Shown: in pieces, positions 37,851 through 57,930 of the stretch
Layout: every line of letters begins with the position of its first letter
How positions within the stretch are numbered: the stretch's first letter is position 1
Assembly: GCA_023459495.1 (NCBI GenBank)
Contig: JAEWTL010000118.1
Span: 45,949 to 109,948, forward strand
Direction: 5' to 3'
Source: Bacillota bacterium
GTDB lineage: Bacteria; Bacillota; Clostridia; Christensenellales; SZUA-584
Length of the DNA stretch: 64,000 nucleotides
Translations under genes and position numbers: made by a program
The notes under the pieces: generated by a model
What the model saw: the letters and a program-made list of their open reading frames with translations, nothing else
What the model was told of the DNA's origin: nothing
Databases searched by the model: none

Positions 37851-38903
37851 CTAAGCGCCACTTTTATCTTTGATTTTGGAAAGTACATATTTATAGTCGC
37901 GTTGCATATCGCGCCACCTATCACCGTTTGCGCGTTTGATTGCCCGAAACGCGCTGAGTGTCTTTGGTGCACTGTCGCCAAGATATGCGCGATACCTTTC
38001 CCACTGTCGGCGGTCGCGGCGCTGGTCGCGCTTATCGGCCTGCATGGCATTATAGGCATCGACTTCCTGCTGGGCACGGGTATCGCCTCGTAGAGGCTTC
38101 TTTGCATCCTCCAGATACTGCGCGCGCTCTTCATCGGTCCATAATGCCTCGACGGTGAGCACAACTACATGCCTGCAATTGGGGTGGATGACCTTAAACC
38201 CCTTATCGAAACCCGGCACGTCCGAGAGGGCAGGGAAGCGCTTGTCTTTCCCTGAGATCGAAAATATGCGACCCTGGATCGGCGCGCATACCTCACAGGT
38301 AGGGTAGTGCTCCGAGAACTTAACCAGATCATAGCCCAGCTGCTCGCCGGTCGACGTTGTTGCGCTATTGGTGGCTTCACGCGTGGTGGTGCGCGCCACC
38401 AGATCCGCGTATCCATCTAAACGAAACTGCCGTCCGGATCCGCCGGTCACCGTCGTCATGCCTTCGGCCTGCAGGCGCTCAAGAATCCGCCGCCTGGCTT
38501 CACGTATCGTCTGGCCGGTGCTGAGCTTCTCCGCTATTGCATCAATGCCAATCTGACGGATGTTGTCCGCCAAATGCCTGCCGAAATAATGGTTGGCCTC
38601 GACAAGCTGGTCCACCGCGTTTTCTGCTATGATCTGCATTGCGCTGCGGTTCAAGCCTCCGAACGGCCCGGCCTGTATATCCGCCAGCGCTTTGGCTTCT
38701 GCAGCGGTATACGATTTCTTGACCAACTCCGCCAGGTCCTTAGCCGCAGCCGCATCCAGCTTAGCAACTTCCTTTTCGATCTCCGCGACGAGCCGTTTGT
38801 AATATCGCTTCCAGCTCGCGCCCTCCGACATCTCGGCGATTTTCTTCAGCAGCCGTTTATATGCCGCCTGATAATACTTGATCAACCGTTCCTGGGCGGT
38901 CAT
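37851..38903 (-). CDS. Head morphogenesis protein (Mu F / SPP1 gp7 family)
   Basis: Follows the portal gene. Has conserved ...CEVCAP...HPNCRH... motifs. Confidence 0.8.
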   Translation of the reverse strand: MTAQERLIKYYQAAYKRLLKKIAEMSEGASWKRYYKRLVAEIEKEVAKLDAAAAKDLAELVKKSYTAAEAKALADIQAGPFGGLNRSAMQIIAENAVDQLVEANHYFGRHLADNIRQIGIDAIAEKLSTGQTIREARRRILERLQAEGMTTVTGGSGRQFRLDGYADLVARTTTREATNSATTSTGEQLGYDLVKFSEHYPTCEVCAPIQGRIFSISGKDKRFPALSDVPGFDKGFKVIHPNCRHVVVLTVEALWTDEERAQYLEDAKKPLRGDTRAQQEVDAYNAMQADKRDQRRDRRQWERYRAYLGDSAPKTLSAFRAIKRANGDRWRDMQRDYKYVLSKIKDKSGA

Positions 38904-40285
38904 TCTTCATCGCCTGCGCCTTCATCATCTCCGGCTATTCTGGGCACGGTAACCGTAGGCGACATAGCGGCCTCTTCGTCATGAATCTGATTCTGCTCTT
39001 TTTTAGTATCGTCATCGCTGAGACCGCGCTTTTTGATTGCACTATATTGGCTCATGACCGCTTTTCCGCCTGTCGCAGATGACAGCATCTCCAGCTGTTC
39101 TTTTTCGTCGACCGGAAGACCGTCGCTCCAATAGAGCTTCAGTGTGTTTTTGTTGATTTTAATGTTATTGAGCTTTGCAAGGTTGTAAATTACCCGCTTT
39201 ACTGTTGGGCTATTGAGACTTACCAGCCGCTGCGCCTTAATGCGCGGCGATACCATGCGCAGCTTTAGGGCAGTACCTGATGAATCACTGGCATCCCCGC
39301 CTGCGTCTGCGAAAGCCTGTCCCATCTCGGATAAAATATAGAGTTGATCGAGCAGTATCTCGATCTCTTTCCAGTTGCTTTCAAGGTTTCCATCCCAAAC
39401 GACGTATCCGAAATCAGGGTCGTCTTTACTTTCGCGTTGAAAGTAGTTGCCCAGTGGAACAAAATATTGCTTCGTACGTTCATCCCACTCCAGCGCCGAC
39501 TTTGGCCCGCTCATACTCGGCTCGCTGTGCTTATCGAGGATCGTATCTGCGCAGTGTAAACGCCACATAAGCTCGGCAATGATGCTGTTTACGATATTAT
39601 AATCATCCAGCCCGAAGACGCTGCCGCTATGCGTCAGGTTCGTCAGCCGCTGCACCGCCGAAATTTCCAGCCCGGTCGATTTAGTGACCGGCGCGCTAAT
39701 TAAGCCTCCGATCGTGCTGCTATCTGCATTGAACTTATGCTTCCGGATCTCAATCTTGCCCGACGAGTGGATCTCCGCGTACAGCGCTGACGGCTTCCCG
39801 TCGGCGTCGGTATCGGTCGGATATACGATAACGTCCTGCAAAATACGCTTCAGATTCGACGGATCCACGATCGGTATCCAGTGCTGTGGGTTGGCCTCTG
39901 TGATTTCCTTGCCGACGAACTTAATCAGCCCGTTTCCGTACCGGCTGACGTCGATGATATTTTCATAGAGCATGCTAAAAAAATTCAGATCGTTCAGCAG
40001 CTCCATCAACTGATCGGTTTCGCCTTCCGTTTCGATTGTCGGAGACTCCCCGCACACAAAATCAGCTGTCTTTTTAGAGAGCAACTGGTGATAGTTGAGG
40101 ATCGTTTTCACGCTGCTGTTTTTCTTCTTGTACTGATCAGCCAATTTAACAAATCGGGCTTTCCATACCTCGTCATGTTCCGTAAGAAAAAGCCGTTCAT
40201 GTTCCTGGTACCGTTTGATCCGGGCTGCCTCGCTCGGGGGAGGCCATGGCTTACCTTCAGCCAGCCAGTTTAAATTCGTCAGCAT
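38900..40285 (-). CDS. Portal protein
   Basis: 461 aa between the large terminase and the F-like protein. Acidic C-terminus. Confidence 0.8.
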   Translation of the reverse strand: MLTNLNWLAEGKPWPPPSEAARIKRYQEHERLFLTEHDEVWKARFVKLADQYKKKNSSVKTILNYHQLLSKKTADFVCGESPTIETEGETDQLMELLNDLNFFSMLYENIIDVSRYGNGLIKFVGKEITEANPQHWIPIVDPSNLKRILQDVIVYPTDTDADGKPSALYAEIHSSGKIEIRKHKFNADSSTIGGLISAPVTKSTGLEISAVQRLTNLTHSGSVFGLDDYNIVNSIIAELMWRLHCADTILDKHSEPSMSGPKSALEWDERTKQYFVPLGNYFQRESKDDPDFGYVVWDGNLESNWKEIEILLDQLYILSEMGQAFADAGGDASDSSGTALKLRMVSPRIKAQRLVSLNSPTVKRVIYNLAKLNNIKINKNTLKLYWSDGLPVDEKEQLEMLSSATGGKAVMSQYSAIKKRGLSDDDTKKEQNQIHDEEAAMSPTVTVPRIAGDDEGAGDEE

Positions 40286-42322: not shown

Positions 42323-42844
42323 TTATTTTAACGGTTCATCGTCAGCCTCTTCGGTATCACCGTCGCTGTCTCCGGCGGCGGTGACCACCGATAGGCTGAT
42401 CTCGTGAGGCTCTCCCGCAAGGGTGATCCTCACCTTCGCGCGCTTGGCGCGTGTGTTTACGCTGACGATCTCTGGTTCGTGGCCCTTGAGCGGGCCAGTC
42501 ATCACCGCACCGTCTTGATCCAGTTCGGATGGTTGCAACGGTTTTCCGCCGCTTGCCAGCCATGTGATATATTCCGCTTCTTTCCTCGACAGCTCTGTTG
42601 GCTGCTTGTCGCCCAGGAAGCGTATCACATGCGGGATGCCCTTAATCTTATAGTAGGCTTTCAAATCCATAGCCATATCCACAAAGACATACCCGGTGAA
42701 CAGTGTCCGCTCGCGCTGGACCTCTTTGCCGTTCTTACGCTCCAGCGCAATCTCCCGCGGCACCATGGCACCGAAGTACAGCCGCCGCAGCTCGTCCCGG
42801 ATGGCCATCTCTTGGCCGGTCTGGACATGGAGCACATAGATCAT
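42323..42844 (-). CDS. NusG-family transcription antitermination paralog (LoaP/RfaH-like)
   Basis: NGN motifs YVLHVQTGQE...LFTGYVFVDM...IPHVIRFLG, followed by a KOW-like segment. Confidence 0.8.
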   Translation of the reverse strand: MIYVLHVQTGQEMAIRDELRRLYFGAMVPREIALERKNGKEVQRERTLFTGYVFVDMAMDLKAYYKIKGIPHVIRFLGDKQPTELSRKEAEYITWLASGGKPLQPSELDQDGAVMTGPLKGHEPEIVSVNTRAKRAKVRITLAGEPHEISLSVVTAAGDSDGDTEEADDEPLK

Positions 42845-48881: not shown

Positions 48882-49595
48882 TCATCCCGCGCGTACCCCA
48901 AGCCGTTGCTCGATGATCCGCACGTTTTCCTCCATAATCTCGCCGCCTACCGCGCTATAGCCTTCCAGCTTTGCAGCCACCAGCGTGCTCCCGCTGCCCG
49001 CGAACGGGTCAAGTAGGGTTTCACCCGACTCCACGATCCTGATCAGCGCCCGCATCAGCTCCACGGGTTTCGGTGTCTGATGCATTCTTTCCTTGCCGGT
49101 CGGCATGGGACACCGGTATATTCCGGGTAGCACCGGCACGTCGCGGGTGATCGGCATAGGCCCATTGGATCCCCATGCCACATACTCGCACTGTGCCCGG
49201 AAGCGCCCATTCTGTGGCCTCGCATTAGCCTTATCCCACGGCACCATGCCACGCCATGTCCACCCGGCCCACTGCATCGCATCCGTTAGAGACGGCAGCT
49301 GCCTCCAGTCGCTGAACACTACGATCGGAGCTCCTGCTTTACACGCCTGCCGGGCGTCGTACATCCATTCAGCCATCCAGCGTGTCCAGCTTCGCTGGTC
49401 CTTGGCGTCGCCCTCGAAGTCGGCATACGGGCAAGCGCCTTTTGTGCTGGTATACTTTTTGCTGGTCGCCTGCTGTTTTGCCCCGATCGTCTGCCCTCCG
49501 CTTGAATACGGAGGATCTGTTACTACTCCGCCGAAGGTCCCTTTCCCAAACTGCCTTATGACCTGCAGACAGTCACCTTGTATAATCCGTATCAT
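48882..49595 (-). CDS. Orphan DNA methyltransferase (N6-adenine or N4-cytosine, DPPY type)
   Basis: IIQGDCL...VVTDPPYSSG (motif IV) then ...LLDPFAGSGST (motif I), which is the beta-class order. No adjacent endonuclease gene. Confidence 0.85.
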   Translation of the reverse strand: MIRIIQGDCLQVIRQFGKGTFGGVVTDPPYSSGGQTIGAKQQATSKKYTSTKGACPYADFEGDAKDQRSWTRWMAEWMYDARQACKAGAPIVVFSDWRQLPSLTDAMQWAGWTWRGMVPWDKANARPQNGRFRAQCEYVAWGSNGPMPITRDVPVLPGIYRCPMPTGKERMHQTPKPVELMRALIRIVESGETLLDPFAGSGSTLVAAKLEGYSAVGGEIMEENVRIIEQRLGVRAG

Positions 49596-49610
49596 GTTTG
49601 CCCCCTTTAT

Positions 49611-49624
49611 CGAACATATGTTCT
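49611..49624. promoter_or_regulatory. Cheo-box-like LexA operator upstream of the methyltransferase gene
   Basis: CGAACATATGTTCT fits CGAAC-N4-GTTC. TTGACA (49653-49648, minus strand) lies upstream, with a weak -10 (GAACAT) 17 nt after it that abuts the box. Confidence 0.45.
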
Positions 49625-49649
49625 ATGTTCTCTCGGAGGCAAGGCTTTG

Positions 49650-50039
49650 TCAATGCTTTTCGCGCATGCGGGGGATGGTCAGATCATCCCGGACGCGGGG
49701 CGTATAGTGGCGGTTCTGGTGGTATTCATCTACCTTGCGGACTTGCCCCAGCAGCGCGCTTAGTTCATTCAGCAACTTTGGATGCGACCTCATGAACGCG
49801 TCGATCGGCCCCGTGCACTCCTCGATATCCTTGTGATAGCGGCGAGAGATGAGTGTTTTCTGCAGCTCGCGGCTGACTCGGGTCCGCGACTTCGCGTCCT
49901 TTGCTGAAAGCTCAAGCTCATGCTGTAGGTCAGAAATCTCTTTTTCCCGGTCACTGACAACTCCGCCGTGGAAGCCGTAATCACTGACCGACCGCTTCAA
50001 AAAGTTGATCGCATTCTCAAGTTCCTGCGCGTAGTTCAT
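49650..50039 (-). CDS. Hypothetical phage protein
   Basis: 129-aa helical ORF with a GGAGG RBS. Confidence 0.55.
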   Translation of the reverse strand: MNYAQELENAINFLKRSVSDYGFHGGVVSDREKEISDLQHELELSAKDAKSRTRVSRELQKTLISRRYHKDIEECTGPIDAFMRSHPKLLNELSALLGQVRKVDEYHQNRHYTPRVRDDLTIPRMREKH

Positions 50040-50119
50040 ATTGCCTCCAGTACCAGTTGGATGTATAATTTTATCAATCTATCCGCTAGGTATAGCATAC
50101 TGATTGTGCGAACTTTAGC

Positions 50120-50193
50120 GGGCCTTACGCTCCATGGCTATGCGGGAGTTTACCCCCCAAACTCCCGCTGCCATGGTCTCTCCCCACAGGCCC
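50120..50193 (-). ncRNA. Unclassified 74-nt extended stem-loop RNA element
   Basis: Nested stems GGGCC/GGCCC, CCAUGGC/GCCAUGG and GCGGGAGUUU/AAACUCCCGC. Asymmetric internal loops and a G6U apical loop. Intergenic, directly 3' of twister-like copy A. Confidence 0.4.
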
Positions 50194-50209
50194 TGCTATC
50201 GGGCTTCAT

Positions 50210-50290
50210 CCTCACTCTGCATTTTCACGGGCTGGTGACCGTCGGCTGTTAACCGGCTGCATTAAGGCAGGAGCGGTAGCGCTCCTTGGC
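50210..50290 (-). ncRNA. Twister-like self-cleaving ribozyme motif, copy A (with P3 insertion), plus 5' hairpin
   Basis: Minus strand: AGGAGCG-CUAC-CGCUCCU hairpin, then CCU-U|AA-UGCA-GCC-(GGUUAACAGCC)-G-ACGG-UCACCAGC-CCGU-G-AAAA-UGCA-GAGUGAGG. Predicted cleavage is between 50264 and 50263. Confidence 0.55.
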
Positions 50291-50301
50291 AGTTAATCAT
50301 T

Positions 50302-50826
50302 CTAAGCGGTGCCATCCTCGCTCGGCTTGGCCTCCGACGCAAAACCACTTAAAAACCAGTGCTTATCATCCTTGTTGATGTTATAAGGGATAGCCTCATC
50401 ATTCTTTTCATCGTAGCCGCCGTAATTTGTCCAGTTGTCACCATTCACAGACGTCTGATTCCACCCAATGGCTATGCAGTCTTCGTCCGCAAGTGCGCTT
50501 TCAATCACATTTGCTTGTTCTTTCAATGAAGTCTCACCCTCGAAAGCCCTGAAAGCATCAATAACCTGCTGAAAGTTTTCGCGCTTTATAAGGGCATAAT
50601 CATAGGTGGTTTGCAATGCGATCTGTTCGTACTCCGGCATCCTTTCAAATGCATCGTTCAGTTGATCGAATCCGGCCTGACCACTAAACATTGGAAAGGT
50701 TCCACCATAATATTTGTCGTATAGGAAGTTCCATATGGCGATTCCTCCACGCCACGAATTTTTAATCTCCGCAAGAAAGTATGCATCTCCTTTTTTGTCA
50801 AACCCAAACATCTCCGTATAGCTCAT
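50302..50826 (-). CDS. Hypothetical 174-aa protein bracketed by the two twister-like motifs
   Basis: GGAGGG RBS. Sequence MSYTEMFGFDKKGDAYFLAEIKNSWRGG.... I recognise no family. Confidence 0.65.
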   Translation of the reverse strand: MSYTEMFGFDKKGDAYFLAEIKNSWRGGIAIWNFLYDKYYGGTFPMFSGQAGFDQLNDAFERMPEYEQIALQTTYDYALIKRENFQQVIDAFRAFEGETSLKEQANVIESALADEDCIAIGWNQTSVNGDNWTNYGGYDEKNDEAIPYNINKDDKHWFLSGFASEAKPSEDGTA

Positions 50827-50849
50827 CCACGATTACCCTCCTTCAAATT

Positions 50850-50922
50850 CCTCACTCTGCATTACACGCGGGCTTGTGACCGCCGTCGGCTGCATTACGG
50901 GGTAGGAGCTGTCACGCTCCTA
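50850..50922 (-). ncRNA. Twister-like self-cleaving ribozyme motif, copy B, plus 5' hairpin
   Basis: Minus strand: GUAGGAGC-GUGACA-GCUCCUAC hairpin (includes the UAG stop), then CCCG-U|AA-UGCA-GCC-GAC-G-GCGG-UCACAAGC-CCGC-GUGUAA-UGCA-GAGUGAGG. It aligns element by element with the O. sativa twister core UAA-CACU-GCC-AAU-G-CCGG-UCCCAAGC-CCGG-AUAAA-AGUG-GAGGG. Confidence 0.65.
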
Positions 50923-51132
50923 CGCGATGTCTTTTGGAGGATCCTTCAGGCTCACAAGAGGCTTGTCTACGATCTTCAGGCATTTTGTTGCAAACCCTCC
51001 GGACTTTCCCTCAAGCAGAACGCATTCCGTTCCGCATACGTCATATGGTTCCGACCGTGTTTTCCACACCTTGTTCGGATACATCCGCGCTTCCGCACAG
51101 TTGACCATCTTCACTTCCGTTCCGACCTTCAT
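50920..51132 (-). CDS. Hypothetical small phage protein
   Basis: 70 aa with a GAGGAGG RBS. Confidence 0.55.
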   Translation of the reverse strand: MKVGTEVKMVNCAEARMYPNKVWKTRSEPYDVCGTECVLLEGKSGGFATKCLKIVDKPLVSLKDPPKDIA

Positions 51133-51340
51133 TTGGCACCTCCTCTAAAATCTCGTCCATCGGCTCGCTTCCGGTCGTCTCCAGCAGTATTGCCGGAGGT
51201 GCGGCCAGCAGCTGATATCCCTTCGTAATGTGGTGCAGCCGCTTTCCGATGTCGACGACCACCACTCCGACCTGCTCTTCCGGGGCAAATCGCTGCAGAT
51301 ATTCAATCAGCTCTCCGCATGTCATAATCCTTTCCGCCAT
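51041..51340 (-). CDS. Hypothetical small phage protein
   Basis: 99-aa ORF. Its last ~30 codons overlap the next gene, so the 3' end is uncertain. Confidence 0.4.
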   Translation of the reverse strand: MAERIMTCGELIEYLQRFAPEEQVGVVVVDIGKRLHHITKGYQLLAAPPAILLETTGSEPMDEILEEVPNEGRNGSEDGQLCGSADVSEQGVENTVGTI

Positions 51341-51552
51341 CCTTTCTTCGCCGCCATCTTATCCAGATCACGCTGCGCCTCATCGGCGGTCTCCCTGCAA
51401 GGGCATCCCGGCAAGCTCCGTGCGCCAGTCCTGTCCCTCAAGTATTTCCGTGCCCGGTATGCCGAGTTGTCGCCTAGCCCTGCGCTGCTGGGCGCGATGT
51501 GGTACATATTGCCCTTAGCGTCGTGGTACGTAGCTCCTGCAAACCACTCCAT
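51322..51552 (-). CDS. Hypothetical small phage protein
   Basis: 76-aa ORF in the operon frame pattern. Confidence 0.45.
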   Translation of the reverse strand: MEWFAGATYHDAKGNMYHIAPSSAGLGDNSAYRARKYLRDRTGARSLPGCPCRETADEAQRDLDKMAAKKGWRKGL

Positions 51553-51562
51553 AGTGCTCCTC

Positions 51563-51757
51563 CTAATTTGATTTCTTACCGGCCCATGCCAGTATCACTG
51601 CAATGACCGGGATCAGCGGGATGATCGCCTCGCCGCCGGTGGCGTCAAACCCGCGCTCGATATCGGCCAGTCGGAAGAGGAACGGTGTCAGGCCCCAGCA
51701 GATCCCGGCCAGCACCGCCCATCTCCGGAAGCGGCGGCTCGCCCACAGCCGCCTCAT
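51563..51757 (-). CDS. Small two-TM membrane protein
   Basis: Start trimmed to ATG 51757 (ATGA overlap with the upstream stop). MRRLWASRRFRRWAVLAGICWGLTPFLF...IIPLIPVIAVILAWAG. Confidence 0.45.
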   Translation of the reverse strand: MRRLWASRRFRRWAVLAGICWGLTPFLFRLADIERGFDATGGEAIIPLIPVIAVILAWAGKKSN

Positions 51758-51960
51758 GGTGTAGGGGACAGCGATTCCTGTATGCGCTGCGCGAGCCTGT
51801 CCACCTTGTCGTAGACCGTACCCCGGCCCAGGCGGATATCCTTGCTCTCGACATGGAGCCTTTCCGCGATGGCATACATCACATAATTGGCACCTTCGGA
51901 ATATCCGTGCCACGTGGCTTCGGTAGCCATCCGCTTAAGATCCTGCTCAGGTTGTCCCAT
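51754..51960 (-). CDS. Hypothetical small phage protein
   Basis: 68-aa ORF coupled to both neighbours. Confidence 0.45.
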   Translation of the reverse strand: MGQPEQDLKRMATEATWHGYSEGANYVMYAIAERLHVESKDIRLGRGTVYDKVDRLAQRIQESLSPTP

Positions 51961-52240
51961 CTGCGAAAGCCTCCTCCCGGATAAATACGTGGACTGTCTG
52001 CAAACCGTGATGTATGCCGCAGGTGCCTAAAAAGCGATATCCCGTCAGGTCCGGCGCTTCATATTCGGAGCCGAGAATGATCACGGTGTATGGCTCGGTT
52101 GCCGCCCGGTCCGAGTCGATGAGGGCGAACAACACGATGCCTTCGTGCTGCTCCATTACGCTTAGTACCTTGGCATTCTCCGGCAGCTTCACGGTCTGGG
52201 CTGCGGTAATCTGCATTGCGTACTTTTTGACCGTCATCAT
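51947..52240 (-). CDS. Hypothetical phage protein
   Basis: 97-aa ORF overlapping the MuB-like stop by 4 nt. Confidence 0.5.
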   Translation of the reverse strand: MMTVKKYAMQITAAQTVKLPENAKVLSVMEQHEGIVLFALIDSDRAATEPYTVIILGSEYEAPDLTGYRFLGTCGIHHGLQTVHVFIREEAFADGTT

Positions 52241-53178
52241 ACCGCCACCGCCAGCTTCATCTCCATATGCTTCGCCATGCCCACAAGGCCATCATAGCTG
52301 GTGTTCTCATTGTCCATCGCATTAACATAGAGGTTCATGGCACCGCGCAGAGCCTGGGCGCTGCGCGCGATCCCCAGCAGCAGATCGATTGCCTTTTCAT
52401 CTTCCAACGCCGGAAACAGCAGCTGGATGTCCTCGCGCTTGATCTGCATATAGGTGTAGACCTTGCGCTGCCGGGTGCGGTTATTGATCTGCGCGAATTC
52501 AGCGCGCTTCTTACCGCCTGCATTGTTTACCGTGTCGCTGTTTCCGATCAGCGCGATCCCCAGCGTTTGGCCGAGCTCGTCAAAGTAGTCCGACAGCGCG
52601 CGCAGCGCTTCCAGCGTCTTGATGGGCAGATGTTGGGCCTCGTCGACGATGATCACCATTCCATCCCGGAGCTTGGCGGCAAGCCCGAGCCACATCTCGT
52701 CGTTGGTACGTTCTGTGACATTGAGCTTCGCGCAAAGCACTTTCAAAAGAGCTTTAACGGTCGTTATGCAGGGGTTTAATGCCACGTATACGGCATCGTT
52801 CGGGTGGTCGCGGAAGAACTTCTTGGCGGCCATAGTCTTTCCAATCCCCGCATCACCGCATGCGATGGCCAGCCCGCCCTTCAGCTGGCAGTTTCGAATC
52901 ACCTCATAGACCTTGGTGGATATCGATGTACCCACGTACCCGCTGCTGGTAAGCTCGTACCCAGGCGATGCGGCGGCAGCTTCCTTGGTTTCGAAATAGC
53001 TGATCAGCTTTGCGAATTTCGCATCCTCATCCCCTTTGTATACGCCGCGGCGCAATGGGGACATGGTCGACGATGGTATTCCTACGATTGCGCAGGCCTT
53101 GTTTTGGCTCCCAACGGTCTTTTCCAGCTCCGCGAACTTCGTCAGGGCCCATTGCTTTTGCATGCTTGTTAACTCCAT
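52237..53178 (-). CDS. MuB-like AAA+ transposition ATPase
   Basis: N-terminal HTH-like region, Walker A GDAGIGKT and Walker B MVIIVDEAQ. Start trimmed to ATG 53178 (GGAGGAGG RBS). Confidence 0.8.
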   Translation of the reverse strand: MELTSMQKQWALTKFAELEKTVGSQNKACAIVGIPSSTMSPLRRGVYKGDEDAKFAKLISYFETKEAAAASPGYELTSSGYVGTSISTKVYEVIRNCQLKGGLAIACGDAGIGKTMAAKKFFRDHPNDAVYVALNPCITTVKALLKVLCAKLNVTERTNDEMWLGLAAKLRDGMVIIVDEAQHLPIKTLEALRALSDYFDELGQTLGIALIGNSDTVNNAGGKKRAEFAQINNRTRQRKVYTYMQIKREDIQLLFPALEDEKAIDLLLGIARSAQALRGAMNLYVNAMDNENTSYDGLVGMAKHMEMKLAVAV

Positions 53179-53194
53179 ATGCAACCTCCTCCAT

Positions 53195-55162
53195 TTATTC
53201 CGAGCGGCGCTTCGCCGCATTACGGTTCATTTTGCTCATGTCGATCAGCACGCCCGTGGTGCCTTGACCGACAGCCTCCTGCATGGGCATCTCTTCGCCG
53301 GATGTTACCGGTACGATGACCTTGGGCTGCTGGATCAGCATACCTTCCTTGCCAGCGTGCGCCCGGCGCACAGCGAGGTCCAGCATGTCGATGCTGCGGG
53401 CGGCGGGTACCGCACCCTTCAGCGCGGCAAGCTCCGACTTCACAGCCTTGTGCACGCGGCGTACGGTCTCCTGTGCCACCTTGACGGCTTCCGGATTGTC
53501 ATTAAACAGAACCATCGTGTCTCGCGCCATGGGTACCGTTCCGATGTAGCGGTCCGTCTCTGCGTCGTAGATACGCACGCTGTATAGGTTCGCGGGGTTG
53601 TAGCGGACGTATATCTCGGTACCCTGCAGCCGCCATGTATCTTCGTCCCAGTAATAGAGCTTTTCGTCGCAGATCGTGATATGCACACCGTTTTGACCAA
53701 CCTTCTGCTTACGAGTGCTGCGCATCAGCATCAGGTTGAGATCATCCGCAGAGGCTTTGCGCTGCGCCTGAATATACTCATTCCAGATGTCGATCCGGCG
53801 CTTACCATGGTCCTTTTCTACCGCGCCGCCATAGCTCCCGACGTTAAATTGGCCGTCGATGAAGTCCGAGATCATAACGCGCAGCTCGCCGTCCAGCGGT
53901 ACCAGTCCTTGCTTGAGCGTATATTTCAGGCTCTCCGGACGCTCCATCACGTTTCCGCCGCAGAATGTCTCAAACAGCCTCGATATCGTTCCTTTAAAGG
54001 TGTTAAAAGTCCGTTCAATAGGCTTCGCCTTGGCATTACGCACCAGGGCGTTGCGCAACTCGATCCCCAGCCGGGTAAATATCGGCGGCGGATCGGATAC
54101 AAGGTCTTGGCTCTTCCGGCTCCTGTGGCCGCGCCCGGCAAGGTCGTGGGTGAGAAACTCGGAGCCGTTATCGAAGTAGACAACTTTCGGGATTCCAAAG
54201 CGTAGGATTGCGTGCCGTAATGCCAGAACGGTGGACTGGCTGCATGGATTGTCTGTCAAGTTCCATCCGACCATGACTCCGCTTCGGGCGTCGATGAACG
54301 CTGTCAGGCTCATGCGGTGCTCCACCTTGCTGCCATCATCCCGATAGGAGAAGATATCCAGCGTATGGTTGTCCGCCACCCAGTAATCGTTTGGAAAAAG
54401 CTCATCGTACATCCGGACGATATATGGCGCGCACCGGTCGGAAAATGCCTTGTTGCCCTGTCGACCCAATGTGACCACGGCAGCGGCGATCTTCTCCGCC
54501 TGGCGGCGGAAGGTACGCTCACCCGGAAGGTCTGGCACCAGTTCCGGCGAGAACTCGGAGATCCAGTATTGTGTCAGCTGATAGCATTGGCTAATCGAAA
54601 GCTGCCGTTCGTCCAGATATGCGGTCAAAAACCAATCCCAGGCTTCTTTCGGAATCCCGCATTGGCCACGGTTCCATCCGCCCCGGTGATCGATGAGGCC
54701 TTCGATGTCACCGGCTTTATATGCCGCCCATTTGCGGTAGAGGATATCTTCGCTTAGGGCGATGTCCTTATAGTGCAGTTTCATCATGCTGACAAACAAC
54801 GGATCCGCGTCAGTCTTTCGGTCATATTTAGCCCGGCAAGCCTGCCATTGTTCCAACACGTTTGTCCAAAAAGAGATCTGTTCACGTTCCGCTGCGCTGT
54901 ATTCATCGAAGCTCCGCGCCGGGCGCGCTGCCTTCGGCGCTTTTGGCGCTACAGGCAGCAGCGACTCGCCCTTTAGGTTGGAGTAGTACTTGCGCTGCAG
55001 CTCCTGCGGAAGCGAACTGGCCGGGACCATATACTGCTTGCGGTTGTTAGCCGGGTTTGAATGTTCCTGAGCATAAATAGCCCCGGTTTTGATCTGCTCC
55101 CGGATATATCGCTCGCTACAGTTCTTCAATTCGGCTACTTGTTTTACTGTCAATAGATCCAT
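53195..55162 (-). CDS. MuA-like DDE transposase
   Basis: N-terminal HTH (LTVKQVAELKNCSERYIREQI), an rve-like catalytic core (WVADNHTLD...YFDNGSEF) and a large Mu-transposase-type C-terminal domain. Confidence 0.9.
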   Translation of the reverse strand: MDLLTVKQVAELKNCSERYIREQIKTGAIYAQEHSNPANNRKQYMVPASSLPQELQRKYYSNLKGESLLPVAPKAPKAARPARSFDEYSAAEREQISFWTNVLEQWQACRAKYDRKTDADPLFVSMMKLHYKDIALSEDILYRKWAAYKAGDIEGLIDHRGGWNRGQCGIPKEAWDWFLTAYLDERQLSISQCYQLTQYWISEFSPELVPDLPGERTFRRQAEKIAAAVVTLGRQGNKAFSDRCAPYIVRMYDELFPNDYWVADNHTLDIFSYRDDGSKVEHRMSLTAFIDARSGVMVGWNLTDNPCSQSTVLALRHAILRFGIPKVVYFDNGSEFLTHDLAGRGHRSRKSQDLVSDPPPIFTRLGIELRNALVRNAKAKPIERTFNTFKGTISRLFETFCGGNVMERPESLKYTLKQGLVPLDGELRVMISDFIDGQFNVGSYGGAVEKDHGKRRIDIWNEYIQAQRKASADDLNLMLMRSTRKQKVGQNGVHITICDEKLYYWDEDTWRLQGTEIYVRYNPANLYSVRIYDAETDRYIGTVPMARDTMVLFNDNPEAVKVAQETVRRVHKAVKSELAALKGAVPAARSIDMLDLAVRRAHAGKEGMLIQQPKVIVPVTSGEEMPMQEAVGQGTTGVLIDMSKMNRNAAKRRSE

Positions 55163-57336: not shown

Positions 57337-57930
57337 ATGAGTAAATTAAAAGAACTTCGTAAACAAAAAAGGCTCACCCAAAGCGAAGTGGCTAGTTATC
57401 TGGGTATATCTCAAAACACATACTCTTACTGGGAGAATGATAAGGTGAAAATAGACAATCAGTCTTTAATAAGATTGTCTAAATTATATAATACATCCGT
57501 TGACTATATTCTTGGTAATAATTCAAAAACTCCCAAAGGTATACAAATACCCGTCTTGGGTAGAATCCAAGCCGGTATACCCATAGAGGCTATACAAGAA
57601 ATACTTGATTATGAAGAGATACCACTCGATTTAGCAAAACAAGGAGATTTTTTAGCGCTACAAATTAAAGGGAATAGTATGGAGCCGAAATTTTCTGAAG
57701 GTGATACGGTTATAGTAAGAAAGCAAGATGATATCGAGAACGGTGAGGTAGGCGTAGTTATAATCAACGGATCTGACGCTACAATAAAGCGTGTTTTTAA
57801 ACATAATGATGGCCTGTCATTGGTGGCTACTAATACTGCCTATTCACCAATGTTTTTTACAAAAGATGAAATTTTATCTCTACCTGTTTCTATCATTGGT
57901 AAAGTCGTAGAATTAAGAGCAAAATTTTAA
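57337..57930 (+). CDS. Phage repressor, XRE HTH plus S24 (LexA/cI-type) autopeptidase domain
   Basis: HTH RLTQSEVASYLGISQNTYSYWEN. S24 catalytic pattern GNSMEP ... ATIKRV. Confidence 0.9.
   Translation: MSKLKELRKQKRLTQSEVASYLGISQNTYSYWENDKVKIDNQSLIRLSKLYNTSVDYILGNNSKTPKGIQIPVLGRIQAGIPIEAIQEILDYEEIPLDLAKQGDFLALQIKGNSMEPKFSEGDTVIVRKQDDIENGEVGVVIINGSDATIKRVFKHNDGLSLVATNTAYSPMFFTKDEILSLPVSIIGKVVELRAKF

Follow-up and report, generated by a model that had tools for sequence, protein, structure and literature searches.

The early region of a phage-like element in the bacterial DNA analysed here (a stretch of 64 kb, hereafter the window) contains, between two small minus-strand genes, a short RNA resembling the twister ribozyme. 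The question is whether this RNA, termed copy B in distinction from a second match downstream (copy A), belongs to the twister class, whether it is likely to cut and what its cutting could mean for the transcript carrying it. The preliminary description of the locus had read the minus-strand RNA as a twister by aligning it with the core of the O. sativa ribozyme. The RNA had been written correctly to the base, with each named element at its place, and the reference core quoted for comparison agrees with what we take to be the O. sativa sequence. The range proposed then (50850-50922) covered the proper segment but clips one base at each end, the ribozyme occupying 50849-50901 and the preceding hairpin 50902-50923. 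Read from 50901 to 50849 on the minus strand, the RNA of copy B is CCCG-U/AA-UGCA-GCC-GAC-G-GCGG-UCACAAGC-CCGC-GUGUAA-UGCA-GAGUG-AGGA (the slash marks the predicted cut), and it is composed of the following elements:

50849..50901, minus strand: type-P1 twister ribozyme without P3 (copy B), assigned by Rfam RF03160 and by covariation in sets of 98 and 12 relatives
50902..50923, minus strand: upstream hairpin, probably the optional stem P0, with 8 bp between GUAGGAGC (50923-50916) and GCUCCUAC (50909-50902) and the loop GUGACA
50901-50898 with 50852-50849, minus strand: P1, having only two Watson-Crick pairs, C50900:G50850 and C50899:G50851
50894-50891 (UGCA) with 50861-50858 (UGCA), minus strand: P2, 4 bp
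50888-50884, minus strand: replacement of P3, a three-nucleotide loop GAC closed by C50888:G50884
50883-50880 (GCGG) with 50871-50868 (CCGC), minus strand: P4, 4 bp
50879-50872, minus strand: loop L4
C50878, A50877 and C50876 with G50855, U50854 and G50853, minus strand: pseudoknot T1, complementary, three Watson-Crick pairs
G50890:C50872 and C50889:G50873, minus strand: pseudoknot T2, complementary
G50857 and A50856, minus strand: conserved bases
U50897 and A50896, minus strand: predicted scissile bond between them, from the Rfam model alignment

Searched with cmscan against all Rfam, copy B (50901-50849, minus strand) aligns with twister-P1 (RF03160) over the full model (1-68) at 42.1 bits, with E = 6.8e-6 when the whole 64-kb window is considered against 4227 families and E = 1.3e-7 when a 1.2-kb neighbourhood is searched. 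Thus the twister reading gains a full-length match with a significant E-value, although the score stays below the gathering score of the family, and the bond implied by the model alignment coincides with the one previously expected to break. Neither strand has an ORF of at least 40 aa overlapping 50849-50901. The minimum free energy fold of 50925-50845 (-29.4 kcal/mol, z = -2.3) recovers the upstream hairpin, P2 and P4. When the elements are compared with the published twister consensus (Roth 2014 / Weinberg 2015, as summarised in PMC5408937), stems P1, P2 and P4 appear in nested order with the internal loops L1 and L2, T1 joins L4 with the 3′ side of L1, T2 joins the conserved GC of L2 with two bulged bases of L4, and the strongly conserved bases of L1 and L4, including the A located 3′ of the scissile bond, are in place as judged by the capitals of the Rfam consensus. 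P2 and P4 form as the preliminary description proposed, P1 is indeed as short as it stated, and the conserved GCC that it pointed out matches those capitals, as do UAA, GGUC.CAAGCCCG and GAG.G. Copy B departs from the capitals only by the middle pair of T1, which is covarying, and by the P4-P2 junction, GUGUAA versus UAAA. The modest Rfam score is explained by the absence of the P3 hairpin, which accounts for 21 of the 68 model positions, by mismatches in the two outer pairs of P1 and by the junction being one base longer. Both pseudoknots lie outside the scoring of the Rfam covariance model, and T1 is also outside a model built for this work (R1; the two window copies and an O. sativa sequence), which matches copy B by construction. 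On its sequence, copy B truly belongs to the known twister class, of which it is a sound though unremarkable representative, and self-cutting is predicted for it.

The genomic surroundings were defined by the following features:

53195-55162, minus strand: 655-aa protein with Mu-transposase C-terminal and integrase-core domains
52237-53220, minus strand: MuB-like AAA ATPase
48882-49595, minus strand: DNA methyltransferase
42323-42844, minus strand: NusG-like protein
38900-40285, minus strand: SPP1-type portal
57337-57930, plus strand: repressor with HTH and peptidase S24 (CI/LexA-like), diverging from the early operon
55499-55436 and 55227-55164, minus strand: two type II hammerheads (RF02276, 43.6 and 51.8 bits, gathering score 37)
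42282-42197, minus strand: RAGATH-28-like RNA (39.5 bits, cut-off 45.3)

The genes around copy B belong to a Mu-like transposable prophage, and their arrangement places copy B approximately 6.4 kb into its early operon. Along the minus strand the order is small ORFs, hammerhead, 61-aa ORF, hammerhead, MuA, MuB, small ORFs, hairpin and twister B, 174-aa ORF, hairpin and twister A, and onward, so that the 61-aa ORF, with a hammerhead on each side, comes just before the Mu-type transposase gene, while twister B sits between ORFs and is co-oriented with them. Scanning of 49500-52000 revealed no terminator-like site and no same-strand promoter-like site close by. Location among phage-like genes, near hammerhead and RAGATH RNAs, is typical of bacterial twisters and is found here; twisters beside hammerheads in phage-like neighbourhoods represent the classic context of the class (PMC8782182, PMC6765202, PMC4604424). 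The 61-aa ORF has weak zinc-ribbon-like matches, and the second hammerhead ends 2 nt before the MuA-like ORF. The RAGATH-28-like RNA, which lies in this operon as the hammerheads do, is flanked by the NusG-like gene and by a 598-aa ORF preceding the portal gene; RAGATH-28 occurs at threshold in two twister-bearing phage contigs (L170, L196) and below threshold in L129, and the presence of a NusG paralogue beside it hints at an antitermination target.

Relatives of the prophage were sought via MuA, resulting in seven IMG/VR contigs with MuA identity of 85, 79, 72, 59, 48, 40 and 40%. Six of the seven (L126-L131) carry one or two twister-P1 matches each, ten in total, always downstream of MuA/MuB and on the same strand, with 36-54 bits in Rfam and 45-74 bits with model R1; a type II hammerhead lies just upstream of MuA in five of these six (L126-L130). 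The arrangement is a constant one, in which the hammerhead is followed by MuA, MuB, several small ORFs, hairpin and twister, one ORF of 132-192 aa, hairpin and twister, conserved genes; within the stretch examined, L129 and L130 have a single twister each. The conserved positions of the motif, whose loss in related prophages had been named beforehand as grounds for abandoning the twister reading, are kept in these relatives. As a separate observation, three ribozyme classes are represented by four ribozymes within 12 kb of L130 (3013-3084 and 9928-9991 of that contig): besides its twister it holds two type II hammerheads and a twister-sister, the last scoring 57.5 bits against a cut-off of 34.

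The gathering score deserves separate consideration. The curated value for RF03160, a member of clan CL00120, is 67.2 bits; copy B does not reach it, the other 11 twisters scored with Rfam in the window and in L126-L131 range from 36 to 57 bits, all below it, and another 18 IMG/VR loci, some of whose twisters have a P3 stem, gave no twister-P1 match of 67.2 or more. Since all phage twisters examined miss this value, it is taken as a strict operational threshold and not as counter-evidence. At Rfam gathering thresholds the window yields the two type II hammerheads only, and standard annotation leaves this group of phage twisters unannotated despite strong covariation. A Twister-P5 match in one contig (L139) overlaps a type-P1 match and is most likely a threshold artefact: the P5 gathering score being far lower (37.6 versus 67.2), the P5 match alone is listed there.

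Covariation was assessed at two scales. The set of Mu-like twisters comprises 12 sequences, two from the window and ten from the six related contigs; 92.1% of its cells are paired versus 17-46% with slid partners, and seven pairs are changed on both sides (n = 12). Thus the last pair of P2 is A:U in 9, G:C in 2 and U:A in 1, the outer pair of P4 is G:C in 7, A:U in 3 and C:G in 1, the first pair of T2 is G:C in 11 and A:U in 1, and the closing pair is C:G in 11 and U:A in 1, while in P1 two central pairs alone are conserved (C:G in 11/12 and 10/12). When IMG/VR was scanned with a pattern for the subtype's 3′ half, it yielded at least 120 stretches in at least 80 loci, nearly all with full-length matches and often with extra same-orientation twisters 0.3-3 kb away, adding at least 86 further twisters in IMG/VR contigs. 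The wide alignment, fitted to model R1, contains 98 sequences, 91 of them distinct, among the matches listed; L116 and L117 do not count as independent, as both come from other assemblies of the same element. Among the matches listed, 96.2% of its cells are paired (17-42% when slid), double changes are seen in 16 of 18 pairs, and compensatory changes occur in P1, P2, P3, P4, T1 and T2. For the 91 distinct sequences among the matches listed, the first T2 pair is G:C in 78 and A:U in 13 with zero broken cells, the closing pair is C:G in 69 and U:A in 22, and T1 is paired in 99.6% of cells with double changes in all three pairs, its middle pair being A:U in 84, G:C in 4, C:G in 2 and U:A in 1. 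The CAC:GUG pseudoknot had earlier been said to covary on the basis of its comparison with the rice sequence, and its pairs do covary across the wider family; because every locus was picked up by a pattern that required CAC…GUG in one of its twisters, this variation comes from second copies only.

Immediately 5′ of the motif the sequence bears out the 8-bp hairpin of the preliminary description: it directly abuts the first base of P1, and the upstream 70-aa ORF has its UAG stop (50922-50920) within it. Such elements are common, since 71 of 94 distinct phage twister sites, among the matches listed, have a stable hairpin ending 0-2 nt before P1, its sequence not being conserved; the 36 nt upstream of twisters have a mean minimum free energy of -10.6 kcal/mol, versus -5.0 at random positions of the same loci. 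As the twister consensus includes optional stems P0, P3 and P5 (PMC5408937), the hairpin of copy B is probably the optional P0. A similar stem is known in the hatchet, another ribozyme class, where most members (about 90%) have, a few nucleotides before the cleavage site, a hairpin of non-conserved sequence that is dispensable for catalysis (PMC4604424). Both the type-P1 twister and the hatchet cut near their 5′ edge, so that the upstream product would otherwise end unstructured, and we infer that P0 supplies it with a terminal hairpin, comparable in this respect to stem III of type II hammerheads. Two other roles were considered and rejected. Compensation for a weak P1 finds no support in the mean number of P1 pairs, 3.39 with the hairpin versus 3.30 without it, and an intrinsic terminator is contradicted by the lack of a U-tract and of any terminator-like site in 49500-52000.

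Downstream, the ribozyme passes directly into the translation initiation region of the next gene. The units flanking copy B are:

50920..51132, minus strand: 70-aa ORF (phrog_32066) with a GAGGAGG ribosome-binding site and PHROG hits
50836..50844, minus strand: Shine-Dalgarno-like GAAGGAGGG, about 4-5 nt past the ribozyme and about 9-10 nt before the ATG
50302..50826, minus strand: 174-aa ORF (phrog_19610), bracketed by twisters B and A
50286-50269, minus strand: upstream hairpin of copy A
50268-50209, minus strand: twister copy A with a short P3 (RF03160, 56.9 bits, E = 3.9e-10)
U50264 and A50263, minus strand: predicted cut of copy A between them, from the model alignment
50264..50896, minus strand: predicted 633-nt RNA if both twisters cut, derived from the two model alignments

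The four nucleotides AUUU separate copy B from GAAGGAGGG, and the ATG of the 174-aa ORF is at 50826-50824. Among the matches listed, 70 of 94 twister sites have a Shine-Dalgarno sequence and a start codon within 60 nt downstream (median offset 11 nt), compared with 29% of random positions. The 174-aa protein has no Pfam family, its PDB matches are insignificant and its PHROG is without assigned function. A rival 99-aa ORF (51041-51340, minus strand) overlaps the 70-aa ORF by 92 nt in a different frame and was picked in place of it by the gene caller on the public assembly L116. Copy A carries UCACCAGC in place of the UCACAAGC present in 96 of the other 97 aligned twisters among the matches listed, so that base 50234, a near-invariant A of loop L4, is C; on account of this base copy A may be impaired despite its higher Rfam score. 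Behind copy A a gap of 170 nt (50040-50208, minus strand) precedes a 129-aa ORF, the L126 homologue of which (87% identical) has a GTG start 23 nt after the twister, the first ~45 nt past the ribozyme being conserved; the window gene may start earlier than listed or have a disrupted 5′ end.

Comparison with the closest relative (L126) shows how sharply the ribozyme is delimited within its surroundings. Copy B and its counterpart are identical at 52 of 53 positions and the identity continues through the Shine-Dalgarno stretch, while the flanks on both sides are essentially unrelated: the gene behind the Shine-Dalgarno stretch is not conserved and the small ORFs upstream are non-homologous. This 98% identity amid unrelated flanks indicates purifying selection. 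The spacing of the twister pair in L126, 633 nt, equals that in the window. The gene behind the twister varies, being phrog_19610 in the window, phrog_3205 in L126, phrog_5671 in L127 and L128, Mu Gam-like in L129 and L130 and a MazE-like antitoxin in L131, while the genes beyond this slot are 80-87% identical among close relatives. The 174-aa protein has 340 homologues, and in more than 110 loci with a homologue from viral, genome and metagenome collections an adjacent twister was found in none; the closest homologues (73-77% identity) have an upstream intergenic gap of just 0-66 nt, also without a twister. The ribozyme therefore belongs to the phage backbone and not to the 174-aa gene. Comparison of 49600-52300 with GenBank phages by blastn gave no match. 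In L130 a homologue of the twister-bracketed gene of L126 is located between the twister-sister and a hammerhead. The twister pairs within L126, L127 and L128 share phage-specific variants (loop GGC, GUC or GAU; junction GUGUAA, GAGUAA or GAAAA); of the two window copies, B has the type of L126 and A that of L128. This pattern suggests that the copies evolve in concert within a phage and recombine between phages. One might go further and regard the hairpin-twister pairs as a ribozyme-delimited slot, from which an accessory gene is released as a self-contained mRNA and whose frozen 53-bp ribozyme DNA doubles as a homology patch for gene swapping, but in this full form the proposal is speculative and rather unlikely.

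Taken as a working model, copy B is very probably a functional type-P1 twister, predicted to cleave itself within the long RNA transcribed from the early region of a Mu-like transposable prophage and most likely cutting that mRNA into separate pieces. During transcription the upstream hairpin would fold first, and P2, P4 and both pseudoknots would next assemble the twister core; the 2′-OH of U50897 would then attack the phosphate before A50896, giving co-transcriptional self-cleavage. The chemistry is adopted from published twister work, according to which catalysis involves a conserved G together with the A that follows the scissile bond, and a short P1 has precedents, this stem being dispensable for cleavage in vitro and having 2 bp in the env22 crystal structure (PMC5408937). 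The upstream product would end with the hairpin followed by CCCGU and a 2′,3′-cyclic phosphate, and the downstream product would begin with a 5′-OH buried in the folded twister core and followed by the ribosome-binding site of the 174-aa gene. If twister A cuts as well, a 633-nt monocistronic mRNA with structured ends would result, containing the 5′-OH, the twister B core, the Shine-Dalgarno sequence, the 174-aa ORF and the copy A hairpin with GCCUU>p, with a stability and translation independent of the genes on either side. A 5′-OH end may not be protective by itself, as it can reportedly, from work on glmS, be a target of RNase J1 in Firmicutes. Processing of polycistronic mRNAs by bacterial twisters stands in the literature as a hypothesis with unproven biological effect (PMC6765202).

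Several other explanations must be weighed against this model. That an ordinary intergenic hairpin region resembles the twister consensus by chance might be argued from the shortness of the motif (53 nt), the G+C-rich DNA and a thermodynamic z-score of only -2.3; but the E-value, already corrected for the window and 4227 families, the second twister match 633 nt away, the ten matches at the equivalent place in six relatives and the T1 and T2 complementarity, which holds although the model does not use it, leave this practically negligible, and together with the covariation in both alignments they effectively refute it. Copy B could also be a decayed relic that folds without cutting and persists as a structured spacer. 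Its score below the gathering value, a P1 reduced to 2 bp and the C at the near-invariant A of copy A, which tells that deviations do occur in this phage, agree with such a fate; decay is nevertheless quite improbable, because the Rfam capitals are kept save for the P4-P2 junction and the middle pair of T1, which covaries, the identity to the L126 copy persists amid unrelated flanks, compensatory changes across relatives maintain all helices, and loss of P1 is tolerated in vitro (PMC5408937).

Two further readings accept the motif and assign it a different role. The ribozymes may be selected mainly at the level of DNA, as 53-bp repeats which flank an accessory gene and serve as a homology patch for cassette exchange, RNA cleavage being secondary. 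This would agree with the replacement of the gene between or after the twisters among close relatives whose genes beyond remain conserved, with the twister being an island of identity at a mosaic junction, with the sharing of variants by copies of the same phage while the two window copies resemble different parental types, and with the twister-free homologues of the 174-aa gene elsewhere. A pure version of it, however, would not yield RNA-level compensatory changes in six helices and leaves unexplained both the sequence-variable upstream hairpin and the constant placement on one strand ahead of a ribosome-binding site; we regard it as unlikely as the main role, though it and RNA cleavage are not mutually exclusive. 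Paired ribozymes flanking a single gene also bring to mind excision of the 633-nt RNA by both twisters and its closure into a circular mRNA by an RtcB-type host ligase. The ends produced by twisters, 5′-OH and 2′,3′-cyclic phosphate, suit RtcB substrates. Such circularization is nonetheless very improbable, given that for analogous prophage hammerheads neither spliced nor circular products were detected (PMC3088659) and that L129 and L130 have one twister each in the stretch examined. Processing of the early mRNA by a cleaving twister is thus the reading we prefer.

How far copy B differs from known systems can be specified. With type-P1 twisters (RF03160; the P3-less O. sativa crystal form) it shares the order P1-UAA-P2-GCC-three-nucleotide loop closed by C:G-P4-UCNCAAGC loop-P4′-A-rich junction-P2′-GAGNG-P1′, two pseudoknots and the predicted cut before the conserved A (PMC5408937). 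It differs from the O. sativa representative by an A:U rather than C:G middle pair of T1, and from type-P1 twisters by two Watson-Crick pairs in P1 instead of 4-5, a P4-P2 junction one base longer, the upstream hairpin and a score below the Rfam cut-off. The env22 ribozyme (4RGE, 5DUN; PMC5408937) likewise has a P1 of two central pairs, and in the Mu-like clade too the two central pairs alone are conserved; at the outer P1 positions, however, env22 has U, engaged in base triples, where copy B has C and G. The closest functional analogy is provided by prophage hammerheads, same-orientation ribozymes flanking single genes or short blocks of inconstant gene identity, which were proposed to cut long phage transcripts into gene-length mRNAs and were found to cleave in vitro and in E. 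coli for three arrangements (Perreault et al. 2011, PMC3088659). They belong to another class, whereas the pair described here consists of twisters in the early region of Mu-like phages, downstream of MuA/MuB.

The locus leaves the definition of the twister unchanged, and its upstream hairpin is probably already present in the published consensus as P0. What it offers is a clean, naturally repeated layout for a genetic test of the processing hypothesis, namely stop codon, hairpin, twister, ribosome-binding site, gene, hairpin and twister, which Mu-like prophages carry in their early operon on a transcript that also contains hammerheads. Useful in addition are the recurrent ribozyme-bracketed slot for a variable gene in Mu-like phages and a twister group missed by default Rfam thresholds. 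Should the slot proposal prove true, self-cleaving ribozymes would contribute to phage mosaicism in addition to processing mRNA.
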